From a virus (Duplodnaviria > Caudoviricetes): 53,414 bases of DNA. A program made the translations under genes and the position numbers. Below, piece by piece: positions 3,039 to 46,447 of the stretch. Numbering within the stretch: position 1 is the first letter of the stretch; each line of letters starts with the position of its first letter. The notes below the pieces were generated by a model. The model saw nothing but the letters and a program-made list of their open reading frames with translations. It did not search any database and had not been told where the DNA came from. Location of the stretch: positions 1 through 53,414 of the IMG/VR virus record IMGVR_UViG_3300032117_002338, one strand, 5' to 3'.

Positions 3039-3998
3039 ATGGACCATGGATACGTAAGGTTGGAGCATGCCAACCCAGAGAGCAAGCAGTGGTTCGTGGT
3101 CAATTGGTGCCTAGGCAACACCTGCAACTTCTCCTGCAGCTATTGCCCAAAGGCCCTGCATGATGGGTCCAACAGATGGCACGACAAGCACATGGTCAAG
3201 AACTTCATCACCAAGGTGCGCAACCATCACTGGGACAAGAACATATACTTCGAGTTCACCGGCGGCGAGGTCACGCTGTACAAGGATTTCACGGAGATAT
3301 GCCAATACTGCACCGATCTCGGGATCAAGGTGGGCATGATCAGCAACGGATCGAGGACCATCCGCTGGTGGGAGCAGAACAAGGGATTCTTCGATCACGT
3401 GTGCCTCAGCTTCCATCCGGAGTTCACCAAGGAGGATCACTTCACCGAGGTGATCAGGCTGCTGCATGTGGACACCAGGGTGCACGTCAACATCATGATG
3501 AGCCCCGAGCGATTCGACCACTGCCTGGAGGTGGCGCATCGCATCAAGGACATCGGCAACATCAGCATGGCCCTGCAGCCCCTGATACAGGATTTCGGAT
3601 CGGAGCTATATGATTACACCGAGCAGCAGAAGGATGTGTTGGCCCGGCAGTATGAGCTGCTGGTCAAGCACATACGCCACGACAGGGCGTTCCCCTACTA
3701 CCGAGGCGCCATGCGCAAGGTGTTCCCCGATGGCAGAACGACGGTGCAGCCGGCGCACAGGTTCATATCGGACGGCAGCAATGATTGGTCAGGGTGGCGA
3801 TGCTACGCCGGTGTTGAACAGCTGATAGTGGAGATGGACGGAACCATAAGACGCGGGTGGTGCAAGGTCGGCGGGCCGGTTGGTCACATAGAATCCCTGA
3901 GCCTGGATCTCCCCACGAGCCCTGTCATATGCGACAAGACCATGTGCCATTGCAACTATGACATCATGTCGACCAAGGAGAGGATAGATGGACGATAG
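3039..3998 (+). CDS. Radical SAM protein with C-terminal SPASM/twitch-like Cys cluster
   Basis: CNFSCSYC motif, FTGGEV, SNGSR; C-terminal CYAG...DG...WC...C-C-C. Confidence 0.9.
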   Translation: MDHGYVRLEHANPESKQWFVVNWCLGNTCNFSCSYCPKALHDGSNRWHDKHMVKNFITKVRNHHWDKNIYFEFTGGEVTLYKDFTEICQYCTDLGIKVGMISNGSRTIRWWEQNKGFFDHVCLSFHPEFTKEDHFTEVIRLLHVDTRVHVNIMMSPERFDHCLEVAHRIKDIGNISMALQPLIQDFGSELYDYTEQQKDVLARQYELLVKHIRHDRAFPYYRGAMRKVFPDGRTTVQPAHRFISDGSNDWSGWRCYAGVEQLIVEMDGTIRRGWCKVGGPVGHIESLSLDLPTSPVICDKTMCHCNYDIMSTKERIDGR

Positions 3999-5019
3999 CA
4001 CGCCTGGGAAACCGCTGCGCGCCTACGACGGAGACGGCAACTGGCGAGATTTAAGCACCGACGAACTGGTCGGAGCCAGGCTCAACGGATATCGCGGGTG
4101 GACGTGTGCCATAGGTGTGGATAACCTGTTCATCAACCCAGACGGCAACGTCTACGGCGGTGCCTGCGAGGTCGGCGGCAAGCTGGGTAACATATATGGA
4201 GACTTTTCCATACCAGATGCATGGTCAACCTGCAGCAAATTGCTGTGCACCTGCGGCAGCGATCTTTTCATACCAAAGGCCAGGACCCCATACGAGACCA
4301 ACCTCCTTCGCAAGTCCAAGAATCTGCCAACCCAGACCAACAGGCGTCGCAATAGGATATCGGAGATGGCGGCGCTTGAGAGAACCCACAGCGCAGGTGT
4401 CAAGCAGATATATTGGGAGATAGGCAGGCGTTGCAACTATGATTGCGGCTATTGCTGCCCGTCCATACACAACAACCACGAGAGGCACAAGACCCTGGAT
4501 GAACTGCTGACCGCCACCAAGCTGTTACAGCAGAGGTTCATCGGCGTCGGCGGATGCAACTGGATCATAAGCGGTGGCGAGCCCACCGCCAACGGCGCGT
4601 TCCTCGATTGGTGCAGATACATAAGCTCGTGCGGATACCACCTCAGCATGCACAGCAATGGCAGCAGGAAGCCCGACTATTACCGAGAGCTGATAAGATA
4701 TGGTAACCTAAACCTCAGCGCACATTACCAGTTCTGGAATCCAGACAAATTCATAGACGTGGTGGCCGCCGTGACCGAGGCCAAGGCGGCCGCCGACAAC
4801 GCCGGCATGGGGCATCTGGAGGTAAAGCTGATGATGACCCCCGGATCGAGGCAGACGACCTTGGATTTCGAGGAGAGGTTGAAGGCCATACCACGTTTCA
4901 CCGAATACTGCACATGGGCCATAGTGCCGGTCAGGGACGGCGACAGGGATGATGCCGTCCTGGACGGATACGATGAGGTTGATTTCGCTCTGTTCGGGGA
5001 TCGCCTGGATGGCAGATGA
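3988..5019 (+). CDS. Radical SAM protein with N-terminal SPASM/twitch-like domain
   Basis: N-terminal CAIG...INPDGNVYGGAC...CSKLLCTC; then CNYDCGYC, ISGGEPT, SNGSR. Confidence 0.9.
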   Translation: MDDSTPGKPLRAYDGDGNWRDLSTDELVGARLNGYRGWTCAIGVDNLFINPDGNVYGGACEVGGKLGNIYGDFSIPDAWSTCSKLLCTCGSDLFIPKARTPYETNLLRKSKNLPTQTNRRRNRISEMAALERTHSAGVKQIYWEIGRRCNYDCGYCCPSIHNNHERHKTLDELLTATKLLQQRFIGVGGCNWIISGGEPTANGAFLDWCRYISSCGYHLSMHSNGSRKPDYYRELIRYGNLNLSAHYQFWNPDKFIDVVAAVTEAKAAADNAGMGHLEVKLMMTPGSRQTTLDFEERLKAIPRFTEYCTWAIVPVRDGDRDDAVLDGYDEVDFALFGDRLDGR

Positions 5020-5068
5020 CGCGGCGGCAAACATACCTGTGGTTGGCGGATCGATCGCAAGGGGAGAT

Positions 5069-6403
5069 ATGATGGGCACCATATGCACCATACCGTGGCA
5101 TCACATAGGAATACAGCAGAACGGAGACTATCGCATGTGTTGCCAGATGGTGCATCAGCCGTACGGCAAGTTGGCGGACGGTGAAGGCGGCCACATGAAC
5201 GTGCTACGGCATACAATGGACGATGCCAGGAACCACGATACCATGCGAGAGGTCAGGCGCAGCATGATCCAAGGCAAGAGGCACACCCTGTGTAGGTTAT
5301 GCTATGAGGAGGAGGATGCCGGATTGCCCAGCAGGAGGATCACCACCAACGACAGGGTTAGCCAACCCCACATGGAGAGGATGCTGACCGAGACCGCACC
5401 CGATGGTTCCATCGACACCGATGCCTTCCCATTGACGTACTATGACATCAGGTTTGGTAACCTATGCAACCTGAAGTGCAGGAGCTGCGGTCCGAGCGAT
5501 AGCAGCATGTGGTATGAGGACTACTTCAGGATGGTCGATCCCAGCGACGGGGTGGCACCGTTCTGGCACTACAGCAGCAACAAGCTGACCAGATATTCCA
5601 TAACCAAATCTGACAACATGTATGTCTTCAACCTCCCGGAGGAGTTTGAATGGTATGATCGTGAGGAGTTCTGGGATCAATTTAGGTCAAACATACGCAA
5701 CGTGGAGACCATATACCTAACCGGAGGTGAACCAACCATCAACAAGGCACATTTCAGGCTGCTGAAGCTGTGCATAGATGAGGGCGTGGCCGGGAACATC
5801 AACCTTGAATACAACTCCAACATGTGGGCAATACCCGATCATCTGCATGATCTATGGAAGCCCTTTGGGCATGTCAACGTGGGATGCAGCGTGGATGGCA
5901 AGGATCACATGGCCAACTACCTAAGGCCGCCCAGCACGTGGGACAGGCTGGAGAGGAACCTGGACAGGTTGGGATATTCAGATGCGGCCAACATCAGCGC
6001 CAGCATCGCCACCACCATCAGCGTCTACAACGTGCTGCACTTCATCGACCTAACCAAGTGGTTGACAGGCAAGATGTATCCCAGGATGGATGATATACCA
6101 TTGTTCCACATGCTACACAGCCCTGACTATCTCAACGTGCAGGTGCTGCCTCGCCACATCAAGGACATGATAACCATGAGGTACGAGGAGTTCTACGGCG
6201 AGATAGAATCAAGCAACGGCAGGGATTGGGCAGATCTCGTGCGTGGGAAGCTATCGGGGATAACCACCTTCATGAACGCCAATGACCTATCGGATCACCT
6301 AGGCGATCTCAAGCGCATCACAGACAGGCTGGACGGCATGCGAGGCCAACGCCTGTCTGATGCCGTGCCGTGGCTGCACGATGCGCTGAGATTCGTGAAA
6401 TGA
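5069..6403 (+). CDS. Twitch-domain radical SAM protein
   Basis: CTIPW...GDYRMCC N-terminus, CNLKCRSC motif, LTGGEPT; start at 5069 (GGGGAG RBS) or 5009. Confidence 0.9.
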   Translation: MMGTICTIPWHHIGIQQNGDYRMCCQMVHQPYGKLADGEGGHMNVLRHTMDDARNHDTMREVRRSMIQGKRHTLCRLCYEEEDAGLPSRRITTNDRVSQPHMERMLTETAPDGSIDTDAFPLTYYDIRFGNLCNLKCRSCGPSDSSMWYEDYFRMVDPSDGVAPFWHYSSNKLTRYSITKSDNMYVFNLPEEFEWYDREEFWDQFRSNIRNVETIYLTGGEPTINKAHFRLLKLCIDEGVAGNINLEYNSNMWAIPDHLHDLWKPFGHVNVGCSVDGKDHMANYLRPPSTWDRLERNLDRLGYSDAANISASIATTISVYNVLHFIDLTKWLTGKMYPRMDDIPLFHMLHSPDYLNVQVLPRHIKDMITMRYEEFYGEIESSNGRDWADLVRGKLSGITTFMNANDLSDHLGDLKRITDRLDGMRGQRLSDAVPWLHDALRFVK

Positions 6404-7579: not shown

Positions 7580-8155
7580 ATGCAGTTTTCAGTACCCCTG
7601 TTGATCTATGAGATGCCCGCGTTGGAGGATTACAAGGCGCTGTATCCCAAGCATTTCTATGCCAAGCTTGTGCACAAGATCGCGACCAAGGTGCACTGGC
7701 GCACGATGCTCAGCGAGGCGCAGAACCATCGCTGCTGCTGGTGCGGCATCAAGGTCACGGAGCTGCGCGATCGTCCGGATTCAGCCACCATCGAGCATGT
7801 GGTACCCAAGAGCCACGGCGGGGCGGATCATCCCGATAACTTCGCCATCGCTTGCCACTCCTGCAACGGGAACCGCGGCGTCAAGAGCGTGGAGGATTTC
7901 ATGCTGCAGAAACGGTCAGCCAACGATAAAGCATCCCTCCGCAGGGAGCTCATGAACAAATTCGAGGTCAAGTCCAGTAACAATGCCGGCCGTGCACGCC
8001 TCAAACGCAAGTTGGATCTCAACCAAGCCAGGAACGCGGTGCTCACCGGCCTGCCCAACACATTCGAACCCGGCAGCAGGGCATATATAACGCATACCTG
8101 CGCTACAGCGCGTTGTCCAAGGAATCGCTGTGCCATGGGGATCCCCGCACGGTGA
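7580..8155 (+). CDS. HNH endonuclease (possible C-terminal frameshift)
   Basis: CCWC...TIEHVVPKSHGG...NFAIACHSCNGNRG. Confidence 0.88.
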   Translation: MQFSVPLLIYEMPALEDYKALYPKHFYAKLVHKIATKVHWRTMLSEAQNHRCCWCGIKVTELRDRPDSATIEHVVPKSHGGADHPDNFAIACHSCNGNRGVKSVEDFMLQKRSANDKASLRRELMNKFEVKSSNNAGRARLKRKLDLNQARNAVLTGLPNTFEPGSRAYITHTCATARCPRNRCAMGIPAR

Positions 8156-14367: not shown

Positions 14368-14442
14368 GGACTGGTAGCTCAAAGGAGGAGCAGGCCCCTC
14401 ATAAGGGCAAGGTTGAGATATCGTAATTCTCCCGGTCCACCA
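14368..14442 (+). tRNA. tRNA(CAT), Ile2 or Met
   Basis: GCCC-CTCATAA-GGGC; GGACTGG/CCGGTCC-A-CCA; atypical T loop ATCGTAA. Confidence 0.8.
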
Positions 14443-14494
14443 TTCGCCGGATTGCTAATCAGCGGTTTCTAGATCTGCTGAGGTGTTTACCGGT

Positions 14495-14525
14495 AGAGGA
14501 TCCCGACACCTCTATAAAAACGCGG
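14495..14525 (+). ncRNA. preQ1-I-like pseudoknot, copy 1
   Basis: AGAGG-ATCCCGACA-CCTCT-ATAAAAACG-CGG. Confidence 0.55.
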
Positions 14526-14534
14526 AGGAATCAT

Positions 14535-14610
14535 TCCCTGGTAGCTCAACTGGTAGAGCACCGCACTGTTAATGCGGGGGTTGCTGGATCGTACCCAGCC
14601 CTGGGAGCCA
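14535..14610 (+). tRNA. tRNA-Asn(GTT)
   Basis: CCGCA-CTGTTAA-TGCGG; G73, CCA. Confidence 0.92.
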
Positions 14611-14707
14611 ACATGCGCATTGCGACGGCATCACCGTCGCGTTAGCGGAGGGAACCACTCGGCTGTTGGACGCGAGTCCGGCAGGAGCCCTCCGCTGTTG
14701 ACACAAT

Positions 14708-14972: not shown

Positions 14973-15512
14973 ATGATAGAGAAGCTGACCGATAGGGCTG
15001 GCAGGGCGCTGTACCTCATGCATCTGCTGAATCTCAACCGCGAGGATCGCATGCTGCGGTTCGCCGGCAACATGGATGGCGATGTCATAGTGGGCTACGT
15101 CAACAACATACCCGACACCGATCACCTGCTGGGTTATAGGTACGATGGGGAGCTGGTGGGGTTCGCCCACATCGGCTACATGGGAGATGGCAAGGCCGAG
15201 ATAGGCTTCAGCGTCGATTCGGAGGCCCGAGGCAAGGGCATAGGCGAGAGGCTGTTCAAGTACTGCGTGGACTTCTGCAAGCTCAAGGGGGTTGACACCA
15301 TATACACCTTCTGCCTGCCAACCAACGTCGCGGTGACGAGGATAGTGTCAAAGTCAGGCCTGAGCATCAGCAAGGATGAGCCGGGCACGGCATTGGCCAT
15401 AGATCAGCATCCAGACGTGTTGGCCTACTACACCGTCCTGGGGAACGAATACATGAGGAACATATACAACGTGAACCGCCACTTCATGCGGCCGTTGATG
15501 TTCGATCGATGA
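14973..15512 (+). CDS. GNAT-family acetyltransferase
   Basis: AEIGFSVDSEARGKGIGERLF acetyl-CoA motif; GGAGGTG RBS. Confidence 0.88.
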   Translation: MIEKLTDRAGRALYLMHLLNLNREDRMLRFAGNMDGDVIVGYVNNIPDTDHLLGYRYDGELVGFAHIGYMGDGKAEIGFSVDSEARGKGIGERLFKYCVDFCKLKGVDTIYTFCLPTNVAVTRIVSKSGLSISKDEPGTALAIDQHPDVLAYYTVLGNEYMRNIYNVNRHFMRPLMFDR

Positions 15513-16431
15513 ACCCATCCCTGGCCAAGCGCGACATCCTGGACACAGGCATGTCCATGCCAAGCTGGTGGCGTATGTGCTGCACCGGTATGTATATGGA
15601 TCCCAGATGGGGGAACAGAGCACCAAGCTTTTTCTCCATCGGCTTCCGCCAATGGTTGATGTTCTCATACCCCTCGTACTTGGGGCGGACGACCATGTCG
15701 GGCCACAGGCTGTGCAGGACCAATATCTTCTCGGGGCTGGTTGCGGTTGGCATGGCGGTCATGAAGTAGTCGGGATTGCGCAGCATGCATGCTATGAGAT
15801 CGATCTCTTGGTATGCCGCGAACAACTCAGGCGTGTCACTGAAGAAGTATGGGTAATGCACGGCGTGGTTGCGATGCAACCACTGCAATGGTGGTATGAG
15901 GTTGGTGTTCTTCTTCATGTGTATGCGGCGGTTGATGGTGGTGAATCCCTGCACTCCGCCACCGATGATGGCACAACCTCCGCTATCCTCGACGTGCTCC
16001 ATCAGAGCCAAGACCAGATATCTGTAGACACCGTTTGATTCGTACCCGTCGGCGCAGAAGCGACGGATGGCATCCTCCAGATAGGGGATGGGATCCACCT
16101 CCAACAGCTCATGGGCTATGCCCCGCTCGGTGCAGAAACGCTTGGCGTATCCTATGTCATGCTCGTTCGTGCCATCGGAGAAGCTGATGCTGAGCGCGGA
16201 GAAAGGTATGCCTTGGTCGTGGAAGGCCCTGGCGACGACCTCGCTGTCTATGCCGCCGCTCATGCACACTACCATGGGGCGTTTGGTTGATTCGGCTATG
16301 CGCCGTGCCTCCAGATATATCTCCTCCTTCCATGGCAGCAAAGGTCGGGTGATGGATCTAAAGCTGATGCCAAACCTATCCGCTATCGCAGCGGGGTTCC
16401 TGCCATCGAATCTGTAATCAAAGCATATCAT
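15484..16431 (-). CDS. PP-loop (adenine nucleotide alpha-hydrolase) ATPase-like protein
   Basis: VVCMSGGIDSEVV PP-loop motif. Confidence 0.75.
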   Translation of the reverse strand: MICFDYRFDGRNPAAIADRFGISFRSITRPLLPWKEEIYLEARRIAESTKRPMVVCMSGGIDSEVVARAFHDQGIPFSALSISFSDGTNEHDIGYAKRFCTERGIAHELLEVDPIPYLEDAIRRFCADGYESNGVYRYLVLALMEHVEDSGGCAIIGGGVQGFTTINRRIHMKKNTNLIPPLQWLHRNHAVHYPYFFSDTPELFAAYQEIDLIACMLRNPDYFMTAMPTATSPEKILVLHSLWPDMVVRPKYEGYENINHWRKPMEKKLGALFPHLGSIYIPVQHIRHQLGMDMPVSRMSRLARDGFIDRTSTAA

Positions 16432-16476
16432 GACAGCAGTATGCCAGCATGGCATGCATCAGGTCAAATAGTCAAA

Positions 16477-18138: not shown

Positions 18139-18167
18139 TTGACACGGCGCCGAGGGTCGAGCATAAT
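18139..18167 (+). promoter_or_regulatory. Sigma70-type promoter upstream of pseudoknot copy 2
   Basis: TTGACA-17 nt-CATAAT. Confidence 0.7.
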
Positions 18168-18190
18168 TGATTCAACCAGAATGTTATGCC

Positions 18191-18221
18191 AGTGGAAGCC
18201 GTCACCACTATAAACAATCGG
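18191..18221 (+). ncRNA. preQ1-I-like pseudoknot, copy 2
   Basis: AGTGG-AAGCCGTCA-CCACT-ATAAACAAT-CGG; same spacing as copy 1 with compensatory change. Confidence 0.55.
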
Positions 18222-18230
18222 TGCGAAATT

Positions 18231-18332
18231 TGGGAGTACGGGTGCATGGTAACATGTTGCTCCGTCCGGCTTAACCGTTCACACAGCGGGCCGGACACTC
18301 ACCGGGTCGAGTGTGCGATGCCGGTGCTCCCA
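18231..18332 (+). ncRNA. Candidate four-way-junction RNA (cloverleaf-like, no CCA)
   Basis: TGGGAGTAC/GTGCTCCCA closing stem; CATG/CATG, GTCCGGC/GCCGGAC, CACTC/GAGTG arms. Confidence 0.5.
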
Positions 18333-18343
18333 TGCTAGTTTAT

Positions 18344-18495: not shown

Positions 18496-18840
18496 ATGAA
18501 ACAGATGCTGATAATGCGCAAGGATCTAAACATGCGCAAGGGCAAGCTGATCGCACAGGGTGCGCATGCCAGCCTCAAGGCCACTTTGGAGAACCTGGAT
18601 CATCCCAGCGTCAAGGAATGGCTGGCTGGCAGGTTCACCAAGATAGCGGTCAGCGTGGACAGCGAGGCCGAGATGTTTGACATCCTCGGCAAGGCACGCG
18701 CAGCCGGATTGATCACCGCGCAGATAACCGACGCAGGGCTCACGGAGTTCAACGGGGTGCCAACCAACACCTGCATCGCGGTGGGGCCGGCATCCGCTGA
18801 GGATCTGGCCCCCATCACCGGCCATCTCAAGCTTCTGTGA
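18496..18840 (+). CDS. pth2: Peptidyl-tRNA hydrolase Pth2
   Basis: KQ...RKDLNMRKGKLIAQGAHA, ITDAGLTEF, TCIAVGP, ITGHLKLL. Confidence 0.95.
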   Translation: MKQMLIMRKDLNMRKGKLIAQGAHASLKATLENLDHPSVKEWLAGRFTKIAVSVDSEAEMFDILGKARAAGLITAQITDAGLTEFNGVPTNTCIAVGPASAEDLAPITGHLKLL

Positions 18841-22837: not shown

Positions 22838-23386
22838 ATGGCAGAACACAAGGATCACCTGGACGACAATAACATCTTCCTGTTCATGGAGGATTTCACC
22901 AACAAATCGGTGAAGCCGGTGATAGATTGGATACTGCAAAAGAATCTCATGTCCAACAAGAGCCGGCCAAAGCATCTAACCCTGATGATCAACAGCCCCG
23001 GCGGCGAGGTACACTCGGCGTTCGCCCTCATCGACATGATGAAGGGCAGCAAGATCCCCGTTCGCACGGTGGGTCTGGGCATGATAGCCAGCTGCGGGCT
23101 GTTGACATTCATGAGCGGAGAGAAGGGACATAGGATCCTCACACCCAACACCAGCATACTCAGCCATCAGTACAGCTGGGGCAGCTACGGCAAGGAGCAC
23201 GAGCTGTTCGCCAGGGTGCGCGAGTTTGAGCTCAGCACCGAACGCATGCTGGAGCACTACAAGAAATGCACTGGCATGGACGAGGCCGGCATACGCAAGT
23301 ATCTGCTGCCCGCCAAGGACGTGTGGCTGTCGGCCGAGGAGGCCGTCAGGTATGGCATAGCGGATGAGATCAGGGAGACCTACTGA
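22838..23386 (+). CDS. clpP: ClpP-like serine protease subunit
   Basis: INSPGGEV, GMIASCG (Ser), ILSHQ (His), DVWLSAEEA (Asp). Confidence 0.92.
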   Translation: MAEHKDHLDDNNIFLFMEDFTNKSVKPVIDWILQKNLMSNKSRPKHLTLMINSPGGEVHSAFALIDMMKGSKIPVRTVGLGMIASCGLLTFMSGEKGHRILTPNTSILSHQYSWGSYGKEHELFARVREFELSTERMLEHYKKCTGMDEAGIRKYLLPAKDVWLSAEEAVRYGIADEIRETY

Positions 23387-25522: not shown

Positions 25523-25582
25523 GCATCCGTAGCTCAGTGGAACAGAGCAGCAGACTTCGAATCTGCGGGTCGGGGGTTCGAA
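25523..25582 (+). pseudogene. 5' part of canonical tRNA-Arg(TCG), interrupted in the T loop
   Basis: GCATCCG-TAGCTCAG...GCAGA-CTTCGAA-TCTGC...GGGGGTTCGAA then breaks into HNH gene. Confidence 0.85.
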
Positions 25583-26290
25583 CATAAATAGAGTATGAAC
25601 TATAAGAAACTTTACGACAATATCATATCTAAGGCCAAAACAAGACCAATCTCAGGTTATACTGAAAGGCATCATATTGTACCCAAGTCGTTCGGAGGTA
25701 CTGATAAGAAAGATAACATCGTTAGGTTAACTGCTAGGGAACACTTTATCTGCCATTATCTCCTATGTAAGATAACAGTTCCTAAATCTATCGAATGGTA
25801 TTCGGCTATAAAGGCATTTAATATGATGTGTTCTAAATCTAACACACATCAAAGATACATTAACTCGCGACTATACCAGTCAATGCGACAGCATATGTCT
25901 ATTACAATGAGTAATCTTCAGTCTGGTTCTAAGAACTCTCAATATGGAAGTTGTTGGATAAACAAGGAAGGTATCGTAAAGAAAATTCCTCAAGAATATC
26001 TCACAACATATGAGCAAGAAGGTTGGCAAAAAGGTCGAAAACCTCCAAAACCTCCAAAAGTAAGACCAGACAAACCTCTGAGAATTCTGAAGCGTCCTCA
26101 ATCTTCGGGTGTTAAGAATAGCCAATTTGGCTCATACTGGATCAACAACGGTAAAGACAATAAGAAGATTCGATCATTAGATATTCCATCTGGATGGACC
26201 AAAGGTCGGTTAATGAAAATGATAAATTAGCACCCGTATGCCGCCTGGCTTCGAACCAGGAGAAAGCTAATGGAATCACGGGGGTTCGAA
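25583..26290 (+). mobile_element. AT-rich HNH cassette inserted in tRNA-Arg, bounded by 12-nt direct repeat CGGGGGTTCGAA
   Basis: Repeat at 25571-25582 and 26279-26290; abrupt GC drop. Confidence 0.75.
25595..26230 (+). CDS. HNH homing endonuclease
   Basis: MNYKKLYDNII...YTERHHIVPKSFGG...NIVRLTAREHFICHYLL; repeated SGxKNSQxGSxWIN..GWxKGR modules. Confidence 0.92.
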   Translation: MNYKKLYDNIISKAKTRPISGYTERHHIVPKSFGGTDKKDNIVRLTAREHFICHYLLCKITVPKSIEWYSAIKAFNMMCSKSNTHQRYINSRLYQSMRQHMSITMSNLQSGSKNSQYGSCWINKEGIVKKIPQEYLTTYEQEGWQKGRKPPKPPKVRPDKPLRILKRPQSSGVKNSQFGSYWINNGKDNKKIRSLDIPSGWTKGRLMKMIN

Positions 26291-26307
26291 TCCCTCCGGG
26301 TGCTCCA
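26230..26307 (+). tRNA. Non-canonical tRNA-Arg(TCG) lacking a positional D arm
   Basis: GCACCCG/CGGGTGC-T-CCA; only 7 nt before CCTGG-CTTCGAA-CCAGG; 19-nt variable region; canonical T arm. Confidence 0.7.
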
Positions 26308-42378: not shown

Positions 42379-42542
42379 TCATGAGATGTGCATACTTGCA
42401 CGGTAAATACCTCACCGCAGATCATGCGGTTGGATAGCTCTCATAGTATAAAAGCAGTACACGTGATTGGTAATCACGAGACGCAGGGGCGGTACCTGCT
42501 GGGAGCACCATTCCTCACCCAGAGGACGATAAATATTCTTCC

Positions 42543-44396: not shown

Positions 44397-44509
44397 ACGC
44401 TGTCAACCATTAAATCTCGATCACATGTGCATGCATGTTTGATATTCAGGTTGCGCCTCCCGCGGCGTCTTGGTTAAATAACTACAGTGAAAACGCGGGA
44501 GTTCCACAC

Positions 44510-46447
44510 ATGTCCAACATCTTCGACGAAATACTCCAAGAGCGGAAATCCAAGAAGAGGGAGTCGATGGACTTCCTGGAATTCCTCAAGCTCTGCAAGA
44601 AGGATCCAACAACCTACGCCTCGGCCGCAGAGCGGATGCTGGCCGCCATCGGTGAGCCAGAGATGGTTGACACCAGCAGGGATCCGCGCCTCAGCAGGAT
44701 ATTCCTCAACAGGACGCTGCGCATATATCCGGCGTTCTCGGATTTCTACGGCATGGAGGAGACCATCGAGCGCATAGTGGGTTACTTCCGCCATGCGGCA
44801 CAGGGCCTCGAGGAGAAGAAGCAGGTACTGTATCTGCTGGGACCGGTTGGCGGCGGCAAGAGCAGCCTGGCCGAACGCCTCAAGGAGCTGATGACCAAGA
44901 ACCCGTTCTACGTGCTGACCGCCGAGGACGGCACCATGAGCCCCGTGTTTGAATCCCCTCTCGGAGTGTTTGACGTGCGCAAGCATGGTGCACGCCTGCA
45001 CAAGGACTATGGCATAGATCCTCGATATCTAGGCGGTGTGATGAGCCCGTGGGCCGTCAAGCGCCTTGCGGAGTACGACGGAGACATATCCCGCTTCAAG
45101 GTCACCAAGGTGTGGCCCAGCAAGCTGGAGCAGATAGGCGTGGTCAAGACCGAACCCGGTGACGACAACAACCAAGACATATCGAGCCTGGTGGGCAAGA
45201 CCAACATACGCATGCTGGAGCACTTTGACCAGAACGATCCGGACAGCTACTCTTTCTCGGGTGCCCTGTGCCGCGGCAACCAGGGCATCATGGAGTTCGT
45301 GGAGATGTTCAAGGCTCCCATCAAGATGCTGCATCCGCTGCTAACGGCGACGCAGGAGGGCAACTACATCGGCACCGAAGGCATATCGGCCATACCGTTC
45401 AACGGCGTGGTGCTGGCACACAGCAACGAATCCGAGTGGCAGAGCTTCAAGAACAACAAGAACAACGAGGCATTCATCGATCGCATCTACGTGGTCAAGG
45501 TGCCTTACTGCCTGCGCGTCAGCGATGAGGTGCACATCTACGAGAAGATGCTGGAGAACAGCAGCCTCGGCGGCGCCAACTGCGCTCCGCAGACGCTGGA
45601 CATGCTCAGCAGGTTCTGCGTGCTGACCCGCCTGTCTCCTCATGAGAACAGCAACCCCTACAGCAAGATGCGCGTGTATGACGGCGAGACCATCAAGGAC
45701 GTTGATCCCAAGGCCCGTAGCATGCAGGAGTATCGCGATGCCGCGGGCATTGACGAGGGCATGGGTGGCATCAGCACGCGATTCGCGTTCAAGGTGCTGA
45801 GCAAGACCTTCAACTTCGATCCCAACGAGATAGCGGCTGATCCGGTGCATCTCATGTACGTGTTGGAGGACAGCATACGCAGGGAGCAGTTCAGCACGGA
45901 GGTCGAGGAGAGATACATCGACTTCATCAAGGACAGCCTGTCACCACGCTACGCCGACTTCATAGGTCATCAGATACAACAGGCGTATATTGCGAGTTAC
46001 TCAGAATTTGGACAATCGAGCTTCGATCGATACGTGGAATATGCGGATGCTTGGATACAGGAGATCGACTTCAAGGATCCCGACACCGGCAATCTCTATG
46101 ACAGGGAGATTCTCAACAAGGAGCTGGAGAAGATCGAGAAACCAGCCGGCATAGCCAACCCCAAGGATTTCAGGCATGAGGTGGTCAACTTCGTGCTGAG
46201 AGCCCGCGCCAAGAACGGCGGTGCGGTGAGCTGGACCAGCTACGAGAAGCTGCGCGAGGTCATCGAGAAGAAGATGTTCGCCAGCGTCGAGGATCTGCTT
46301 CCGGTTATCAGCTTCGATAGCAAGAAGGACAAGGAGATTGAGTCAAAACATATCGACTTTGTCAACAGGATGGTTAAGAGCGGATACACCGAAAAACAGG
46401 TGAGAAGGCTAGTTGATTGGTTCATGCGTCATCAGAAGTCGTCTTGA
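44510..46447 (+). CDS. prkA: PrkA/YeaG AAA+ serine kinase family protein
   Basis: LLGPVGGGKSS, KTEPGDDNNQDISSLVGK, EFVEMFKAPIKMLHPLLTATQEG. Confidence 0.96.
   Translation: MSNIFDEILQERKSKKRESMDFLEFLKLCKKDPTTYASAAERMLAAIGEPEMVDTSRDPRLSRIFLNRTLRIYPAFSDFYGMEETIERIVGYFRHAAQGLEEKKQVLYLLGPVGGGKSSLAERLKELMTKNPFYVLTAEDGTMSPVFESPLGVFDVRKHGARLHKDYGIDPRYLGGVMSPWAVKRLAEYDGDISRFKVTKVWPSKLEQIGVVKTEPGDDNNQDISSLVGKTNIRMLEHFDQNDPDSYSFSGALCRGNQGIMEFVEMFKAPIKMLHPLLTATQEGNYIGTEGISAIPFNGVVLAHSNESEWQSFKNNKNNEAFIDRIYVVKVPYCLRVSDEVHIYEKMLENSSLGGANCAPQTLDMLSRFCVLTRLSPHENSNPYSKMRVYDGETIKDVDPKARSMQEYRDAAGIDEGMGGISTRFAFKVLSKTFNFDPNEIAADPVHLMYVLEDSIRREQFSTEVEERYIDFIKDSLSPRYADFIGHQIQQAYIASYSEFGQSSFDRYVEYADAWIQEIDFKDPDTGNLYDREILNKELEKIEKPAGIANPKDFRHEVVNFVLRARAKNGGAVSWTSYEKLREVIEKKMFASVEDLLPVISFDSKKDKEIESKHIDFVNRMVKSGYTEKQVRRLVDWFMRHQKSS

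Follow-up and report, generated by a model that had tools for sequence, protein, structure and literature searches.

The window analysed here is the whole 53,414-nt stretch of the IMG/VR record IMGVR_UViG_3300032117_002338 (positions 1–53,414), which comes from a virus of the Caudoviricetes; the record is rated 13% complete and the window is therefore a fragment of a very large phage. ARAGORN predicts 30 tRNA genes in it, all on the plus strand, and at gathering thresholds Rfam reports tRNAs and nothing else over the window. Inside this tRNA cluster, and on the tRNA strand, lies a non-tRNA RNA gene, part of which had been flagged in an initial annotation as a hairpin with a preQ1-I-like pseudoknot just before a tRNA-Asn gene. 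The letters and positions of that hairpin are exact (AGAGG at 14495–14499, the loop ATCCCGACA at 14500–14508 and CCTCT at 14509–14513), as are those of its tail (ATAAAAACG at 14514–14522, followed by CGG at 14523–14525), and ARAGORN places the start of tRNA-Asn(GTT) at 14535, 9 nt past the CGG. The hairpin is real, but it makes up only the 3′ third of a 92-nt unit (14443–14534). In all nine sequences from our first round of searches the conserved stretch reaches ~50 nt further upstream than the flagged hairpin, and the contigs of another phage, assembled from two lake metagenomes, align exactly to 14443–14534 while being unlike the window on either side, so that the unit corresponds to the entire tRNA-Met/tRNA-Asn spacer. 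The contigs revealed these boundaries and no processing sites. The parts of the unit and its surroundings are given below, where R1 is the covariance model of the first nine units, and stems A and B come from RNAalifold and from pair counts on the alignments.

14368–14442 (+): tRNA-Met(CAT), ending 3 nt before stem A
14443–14534 (+): whole conserved RNA unit, 92 nt, an exact fill of the gap between tRNA-Met and tRNA-Asn; 110.8 bits with R1
14446–14494 (+): 5′ domain, a bent hairpin; stem A pairs 14446–14450 (GCCGG) with 14490–14494 (CCGGT) and encloses internal loops and stem B
14459–14481 (+): stem B hairpin; 7 bp, 14459–14465 with 14475–14481, and a 9-nt loop
14468–14473 (+): palindrome TCTAGA at the tip of stem B, a self-complementary hexamer
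14495–14513 (+): P1 hairpin; AGAGG, 9-nt loop, CCTCT, with 96.8% of cells paired
14501–14505 (+): P2 loop strand; TCC (register by homology) or CCG (register of the initial annotation)
14514–14523 (+): A-rich linker (L3), ATAAAAACG(C)
14523–14526 (+): P2 tail strand; GGA at 14524–14526 or CGG at 14523–14525
14527–14534 (+): single-stranded 8-nt spacer to the 5′ end of tRNA-Asn
14535–14610 (+): tRNA-Asn(GTT), directly 3′ of the unit
18161–18222 (+): copy 2; a different 5′ hairpin (GCATAAT...GTTATGC), then AGTGG-AAGCCGTCA-CCACT-ATAAACAAT-CGGT

The initial annotation also implied a second copy. It exists, its pseudoknot module running from AGTGG to CGG at 18191–18221; it lies ~120 nt upstream of the second tRNA-Asn and does not adjoin it. 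Compared with the flagged hairpin, it has an equal 9-nt loop, an equal 9-nt linker and one compensated P1 pair; its P2 reads GCCG:CGGU, and an A precedes the P1 3′ strand. With R1 it reaches 17.5 bits (E of 0.013 over 156 kb) in an alignment that passes through the 3′ module only; copy 2 is a paralog of the pseudoknot module only. Since the palindromic arm is absent from it, the pseudoknot and that arm do not have to work jointly. The hairpin-and-tail pattern that yielded seven IMG/VR loci for the unit found no homologs of copy 2 elsewhere.

Within the window, the shape of the pseudoknot is by itself no rarer than expected by chance: a generic descriptor (5-bp stem, 7–12-nt loop, A-rich linker and a 3-nt complement of the loop) has four matches, against 2.6 ± 1.8 (maximum 7) in 40 first-order Markov simulations. 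Nor is the folding energy of the 92-nt unit remarkable, with a z-score of −1.37 and 22 of 200 shuffled sequences folding as well. The case above chance lies in the conservation and covariation read from the alignments of its homologs.

Other features stand nearby in the array. The 97-nt spacer between tRNA-Asn and tRNA-Lys (14611–14707) contains two G+C-rich hairpins, GCGACGG...CCGTCGC and AGCGGAGGG...CCCTCCGCT, and may be another small array RNA. Three tRNA-like Rfam matches (42437–42507, 26230–26304 and 25523–25578) are absent from the ARAGORN list. Opposite the tRNAs, at 15484–16455 on the minus strand, is a 323-aa ORF with the N-terminus of a PP-loop ATP-pyrophosphatase, whose best matches (Asn_synthase, QueC, MnmA and NAD synthase) are all weak.

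Homologs in uncultured phages

Searches with hairpin and tail patterns returned seven loci in IMG/VR and 23 in metagenomes, seven of the latter being members of the family, and a looser scan of viral contigs for the 3′ module (at least 119 stretches) contributed one further member, L133, among the matches listed. The first round totalled nine unique sequences. The same hairpin and tail patterns gave eight loci in prokaryote genome contigs, none of them a member, and no sequence similar to the unit was found in 50,697 GenBank phage records. Two relaxed 3′-module patterns returned only chance matches from viral contigs, the first adding three loci, all without hairpin or tRNAs, and the second 19 loci, in none of which P1 is present, while scans that left P1 or the first loop bases free recovered the same eight loci and nothing more. 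A second-round scan, anchored on the 5′ domain only, detected 17 loci, 12 of them new, which correspond to 10 unique sequences. In total, the family comprises 19 unique units from uncultured phage and lake contigs. We refer to the alignment of the first nine units as A2 and to that of all 19 as A6.

The way in which these units were collected bears on how their conservation is read. The first nine were found by patterns that fix the 3′ module, so that its near-invariance among them is partly circular; the next ten were found by a pattern in which parts of the 5′ domain, the inner C and G of the palindrome among them, are fixed, and invariance at such fixed positions is partly there by construction.

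In searches with R1, 16 sources each have a single full-length copy, and a single copy is likewise found per record in eight whole virus records, one of which is 333 kb long and rated 92% complete; the unit is thus single-copy and gene-like. Its host phages are distant from each other: only three ORFs match between the window and the other loci, at 27–48% identity, and among the neighbouring proteins none is common to all loci. The sequencing runs listed as holding the stretch are DNA runs, mostly from lake and freshwater metagenomes (12 studies), with no RNA runs among them. A catalogue of 8,495 candidate RNAs from IMG/VR has been published (PMC10690425) and may already include the motif of the unit.

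Covariation in the pseudoknot and the palindromic loop

On A6, 93.7% of 399 cells pair, compared with a mean of 82.3% in shuffled alignments and 39–57% in slid controls; nine pairs are changed on both sides, and the covariation score is reached by none of 500 shuffles. Stem A is 100% paired in all 19 units, its first pair being an invariant G.U and one other pair switching between C-G (8 units) and U-A (11 units). In stem B, 96.2% of cells are paired and four of the seven pairs are changed on both sides. P1 likewise varies by compensation, with AGUGG/CCACU in L186, L191 and copy 2, and UGAGG/CCUCA in L189. For P2, per-column pairing on A6 is 77.6%, a conservative value because MAFFT misplaces the four modules with longer loops.

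Taken one by one, the 15 distinct 3′ modules each form a helix of 3 bp or more between loop and tail, with at least five different helices among them, and each has an A-rich linker of 8–12 nt:

L185: GCU:AGC
L186: CUGCG:CGCGG
L188, L189 and L194: UCCC:GGGA
L195: UUCCC:GGGAG (contains UCCC:GGGA)
L193: GUCCC:GGGGU
L191: UGCC:GGCA
L192: CCACG:CGUGG
Window unit: UCC:GGA or CCG:CGG

Since the loops and tails of the second-round units change together, the pseudoknot recognised in the initial annotation is real: an H-type knot comparable in size to preQ1-I, in which P1 has 5 bp, P2 is short and the A-rich linker spans 8–12 nt, and which shows compensatory changes across homologs. Cognate loop-tail pairs score 10.6 on average against 9.24 for swapped ones, a value reached in 91 of 5000 permutations; since C-rich loops and G-rich tails predominate, the significance of this cross-pairing test is no more than moderate. 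With 19 unique units in which P1 and P2 covary, we consider it highly probable that the unit is a real structured RNA gene with a true pseudoknot.

The helix between loop and tail thus stands, but the register proposed for it, CCG:CGG, is less likely than the pairing of T14501–C14503 with G14524–A14526. Each of the two registers has 3 bp and each can form in the window; we favour TCC:GGA because relatives with equal loop and linker lengths use loop positions 2–5. The GGA of the tail is invariant in the first nine units, and TCC:GGA is kept in L133 and in L005, where the equivalent of C14523 is A and the CCG:CGG register is broken. By eye in A2, an alternative in which the tail pairs with the 5′ leader (UYGC:GCGG) looks about equally well preserved among the first nine units, and a single-sequence fold of the unit picks it over P2.

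The second constrained element is the loop of stem B (9–10 nt), which contains a perfect 6-nt palindrome in all 19 units, in the four versions UCUAGA, CCUAGG, CCAUGG and GCGCGC. Treated as three 'pairs', the palindrome pairs in 15 of 15 cells, a result matched by one of 500 shuffles, and two of the three 'pairs', including the central, adjacent one, are changed on both sides. As adjacent bases cannot pair inside one loop, the constraint is one of self-complementarity between two copies. A DNA palindrome is a less likely source of it, and the rate of palindromic hexamers in the window is ordinary (0.0160 versus 0.0156 expected). Two unit RNAs may therefore pair as a dimer through this loop, a possibility that the covariation suggests and that we put forward tentatively; UCUAGA, the version in the window, is a weak kissing sequence, and the palindromes could instead be read by a dimeric protein.

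Such a loop has a counterpart in the HIV-1 dimerisation site (DIS), which also presents a 6-nt palindrome in a 9-nt hairpin loop; the loop of L150, UAGCGCGCA, comes close to being identical with the DIS loop of subtype B. The two molecules and their biology are, however, unrelated, and for the phage unit it is covariation that points to dimerisation. Closer in setting are ROOL and GOLLD, phage-encoded RNAs often found near tRNA islands that, according to PMC12286853, self-associate via kissing loops, as the unit may do as well. As described there, ROOL and GOLLD are 500–800+ nt long and form cages of 8 to 14 subunits, in contrast to the phage unit with its ~90 nt, which would be a dimer at most because it has a single palindromic loop. 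The Rfam models of ROOL and GOLLD match neither the window nor the other loci; apart from one group I intron, every Rfam match there at or above its gathering score is a tRNA. That intron (61.4 bits) lies in a related phage fragment, at L005:2290–2475 on the minus strand; another such fragment encodes a tRNA whose anticodon is CUA and which may be an amber suppressor (L002:1412–1485, minus strand).

Genomic context and proposed role

The unit is flanked by tRNAs or by other non-coding RNA. In nine of the 19 units the next tRNA follows 20–24 nt after P1 (Lys in three cases, Phe in two, and Asn, Ala, Leu and Arg in one each), and in seven a tRNA ends 3–5 nt before the unit starts (Met, Asn, Glu, Leu and Ser once, Val twice), while ten have no tRNA within 24 nt. 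L153 and L154 lack tRNAs on the whole of their contigs (3.7 kb and 4.4 kb, respectively) and instead show a promoter upstream, each with a TG extension: TTGACA-16-TAATAT, ending 20 nt before the unit, in L153, and TTGACA-16-TAAGAT, ending 55 nt before it, in L154. No terminator was found after the unit, and neither ARAGORN nor RF00005 calls a cloverleaf or tmRNA on it, in the window or at any other locus. The special link to tRNA-Asn made in the initial annotation is not borne out, as Asn follows in only one of the nine adjacent cases and L153 and L154 have no tRNA on their contigs. The suggested tie to queuosine fares no better, with a queuosine tRNA downstream in one of nine cases, no TGT found in the window, and a QueC match there that is the generic N-terminus of a PP-loop ATPase (19.7 bits, compared with 150.3 for the equivalog).

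Some of the loci carry further RNA-like features. L001, L154 and L153 share a ~65-nt extension with two covarying hairpins (L001:948–1017, L154:2893–2965 and L153:1836–1900), which ends in CCA in L001 and L153, and in L153 and L154 another 300–400 nt of conserved non-coding RNA follow until the next promoter is reached. In the window, copy 2 is followed by a multi-hairpin domain (18223–18343) closed by TGGGAG...CTCCCA, whose CCGG-ACACTCA-CCGG recalls the CCGG-TCACT-CCGG of the L001 and L154 extensions (GCAGG-TCACT-CCTGC in L153); MAFFT gave no convincing alignment between this region and the extension of the three loci and did not confirm their homology. In L006, on the minus strand, a perfect 10-bp complement brackets the unit, with GGTGGAGAAT and ATTCTCCACC placed just 5′ of it and ~330 nt downstream, which suggests a larger RNA in that phage.

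Considered as a whole, these features lead us to propose, with moderate confidence, that the unit is a stand-alone, tRNA-sized small RNA of giant freshwater phages, which would be produced through tRNA processing, pair with itself and end in a 3′ pseudoknot. It would be transcribed within the tRNA polycistron or from its own sigma-70-type promoter, and the enzymes that trim the neighbouring tRNAs would release it, its 5′ G lying 3–5 nt after the preceding CCA and its 3′ end being set, where a next tRNA exists, by the RNase P cut of that tRNA. Two molecules would then pair via the palindromic loop into a kissing dimer. More speculatively, the compact pseudoknot, with its A-rich strand in the groove of P1, might cap the terminator-less 3′ end against 3′ exonucleases and/or present a surface recognised by a partner.

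Two known systems are useful comparisons for this reading. T4 RNA C and RNA D are small stable non-tRNA RNAs encoded in a phage tRNA cluster and, like the unit, would presumably be released by tRNA processing; they differ from it in size and fold, and nothing in the GenBank phage records resembles the unit. In MALAT1, RNase P generates the 3′ end by cutting at a fold further downstream that resembles a tRNA (mascRNA); an A-rich strand held in a helix then protects this end, and it is by analogy with the triple helix at this RNase P-made end that a capping role was considered for the pseudoknot. We regard that role as doubtful. MALAT1 is a eukaryotic lncRNA with a U.A-U major-groove triplex, while a minor-groove position of the A-rich linker is only presumed for the phage RNA.

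The family adds a well-supported, hitherto uncatalogued member to the few non-tRNA RNAs kept inside phage tRNA operons and shows the preQ1-I pseudoknot architecture in use outside any riboswitch setting. Through its palindromic loop with four versions, it is also a candidate natural homodimer of RNA, compact at 90 nt and far easier to test than ROOL or GOLLD. As it is kept among giant phages with almost no protein similarity, it likely touches something basic in infection.

Alternative explanations and resemblance to known RNAs

The alternative that survives best is that the unit is a purely cis-acting processing or insulating spacer of the tRNA array, which would position RNase P, RNase E or exonucleases and whose excised piece would have no function. 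In the window and in several relatives it lies flush between tRNAs and is regularly spaced from both neighbours, which fits such a role, but each genome has a single copy despite arrays of 20–30 tRNAs, the units of L153 and L154 sit behind their own promoters without tRNAs, and neither the palindromic loop nor ~50 nt of covarying 5′ domain would be needed for it. We thus consider it unlikely.

A cis-acting, riboswitch-like variant of preQ1-I was the reading of the initial annotation; in it, a ligand would stabilise the knot 8–10 nt before the tRNA and so gate RNase P or downstream transcription. The resemblance to preQ1-I (RF00522) is one of architecture, as both are H-type pseudoknots of ~34 nt in which P1 has 5 bp, the hairpin loop supplies one strand of a short P2 (3–5 bp in the phage family) and the 3′ linker is A-rich, and extends to the local consensus, the AG(A/U)GG...CC(U/A)CUAUAAAAA of the unit matching the model. 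PreQ1 and DUF805 were among the three Rfam models listed in each search with a short module (E ≤ 10), the spacing to the next tRNA is constant in the nine adjacent cases, and PMC8925977 describes designed riboswitches that control RNase P cleavage in E. coli. On the other hand, the PreQ1 model did not appear in a search with 421 nt, listed nothing on copy 2 and, at relaxed threshold, gave 8.9 bits in the window (E of 9.6, 61 nt) and 13.3 bits in L193 (E of 0.84, 71 nt), far below the gathering cut-off of 39. In preQ1-I, the ligand pairs with C17 (B. subtilis numbering), the base that immediately precedes the 3′ strand of P1; in the 19 units this base is A (17) or G (2) and never C, and the first base of the loop varies between A, G and U.

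The proposed switch fails as well. GAGGTGT (14480–14486) is complementary to ACACCTC (14506–14512) in the window, as was pointed out, but the helix GAGGUGU:ACACCUC is not conserved among homologs, with 70.7% of cells paired in the 19 units, compared with a shuffled mean of 70.8%, and 71.4% in the first nine. The phage RNA further differs from preQ1-I in its loop, which has 9–16 nt and other conserved letters, and in being fused to a 50-nt 5′ domain, and it does not lie in a 5′ UTR, nor does it have an expression platform, queuosine genes or a regulated gene. More than half of the units (10 of 19) are without a close tRNA, a queuosine tRNA is the exception downstream, and the window has neither TGT nor a true QueC. 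The unit is not a preQ1-I riboswitch and not a cis riboswitch, and we hold even a divergent variant of the kind described to be very improbable.

We give as little weight to a combination of the two ideas, in which the self-dimerising, trans-acting RNA would use its preQ1-I-type fold as a working pocket for some small molecule other than preQ1, with a purine in place of the ligand-pairing C. Were it true, the phage would sense or soak up a metabolite with an RNA from its own tRNA operon, and the RNase P cut would be gated where a tRNA follows 8–10 nt later.

The DUF805 RNA motif (RF03081) is the other Rfam family with a similar module. The consensus of its first hairpin and tail, GUGG-AGaCCAGAaA-CCAC-UuaAAAAAC-GGGG, has a close counterpart in the phage family, AGAGG-GUCCCGAUA-CCUCU-AUAAAAACA-GGGG. 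Its model scores 15.6, 14.8 and 13.0 bits against a cut-off of 51.1, however, and the unit has neither the second hairpin, in place of which the alignment runs into the tRNA, nor a downstream DUF805 gene; a search for literature on the DUF805 motif as a riboswitch found nothing related. Other candidates, considered from the sequence, have no conserved feature in their support: 1) tmRNA PK1, 2) pistol and hatchet, and 3) a put-like antiterminator, a CsrA sponge or an anti-SD mimic. The SD-like GGAGG that comes after the knot in the window is replaced in relatives by GGAAG, GGAGC or GGAUG, or is missing, and there is no conserved ORF downstream.

That the unit is a ribozyme which cleaves itself and so releases the 3′ end of the preceding tRNA, be it HDV-like ('theta') or of a new class, is a reading to which we lend very little credence. 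HDV-like ribozymes have a G.U as the first pair of P1, as stem A invariably does, and seven of the 19 units begin 3–5 nt after the CCA of a tRNA. Theta ribozymes adjoin phage tRNAs in a similar manner, within 5 nt of them according to PMC10879173. No ribozyme model appeared in the Rfam searches, even at E-values up to 10, though, and on inspection of A6 the HDV topology does not fit, as there are 9 nt between stem B and the 3′ strand of stem A (J3/1) and no conserved P2. The linker, moreover, begins with A or U, not with the catalytic C that is first in J4/2 according to PMC10879173.

An element acting at the DNA level, be it a palindromic protein-binding site or a homing-endonuclease target carried with mobile genes, has next to no probability in our view: the hexamers are classical DNA palindromes and an HNH endonuclease gene lies directly upstream of the L153 unit, but stems A and B contain G.U pairs, both invariant and covarying ones, that DNA could not accommodate without mismatches, the compensatory changes preserve RNA helices on the tRNA strand only, and palindromic hexamers occur in the window at an ordinary rate.

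The HNH gene of L153 (L153:1235–1690) ends ~55 nt before the unit and has a homolog in the window at 7580–8155 (42% identity). The window also encodes cargo related to translation and metabolism (18496–18840, 22838–23386, 44435–46447, 3039–6403 and 3–1046), including a PTH2 peptidyl-tRNA hydrolase inside the array, a Clp protease, a PrkA kinase, three radical-SAM genes, one of them of the twitch-domain type, and a nicotinate phosphoribosyltransferase.
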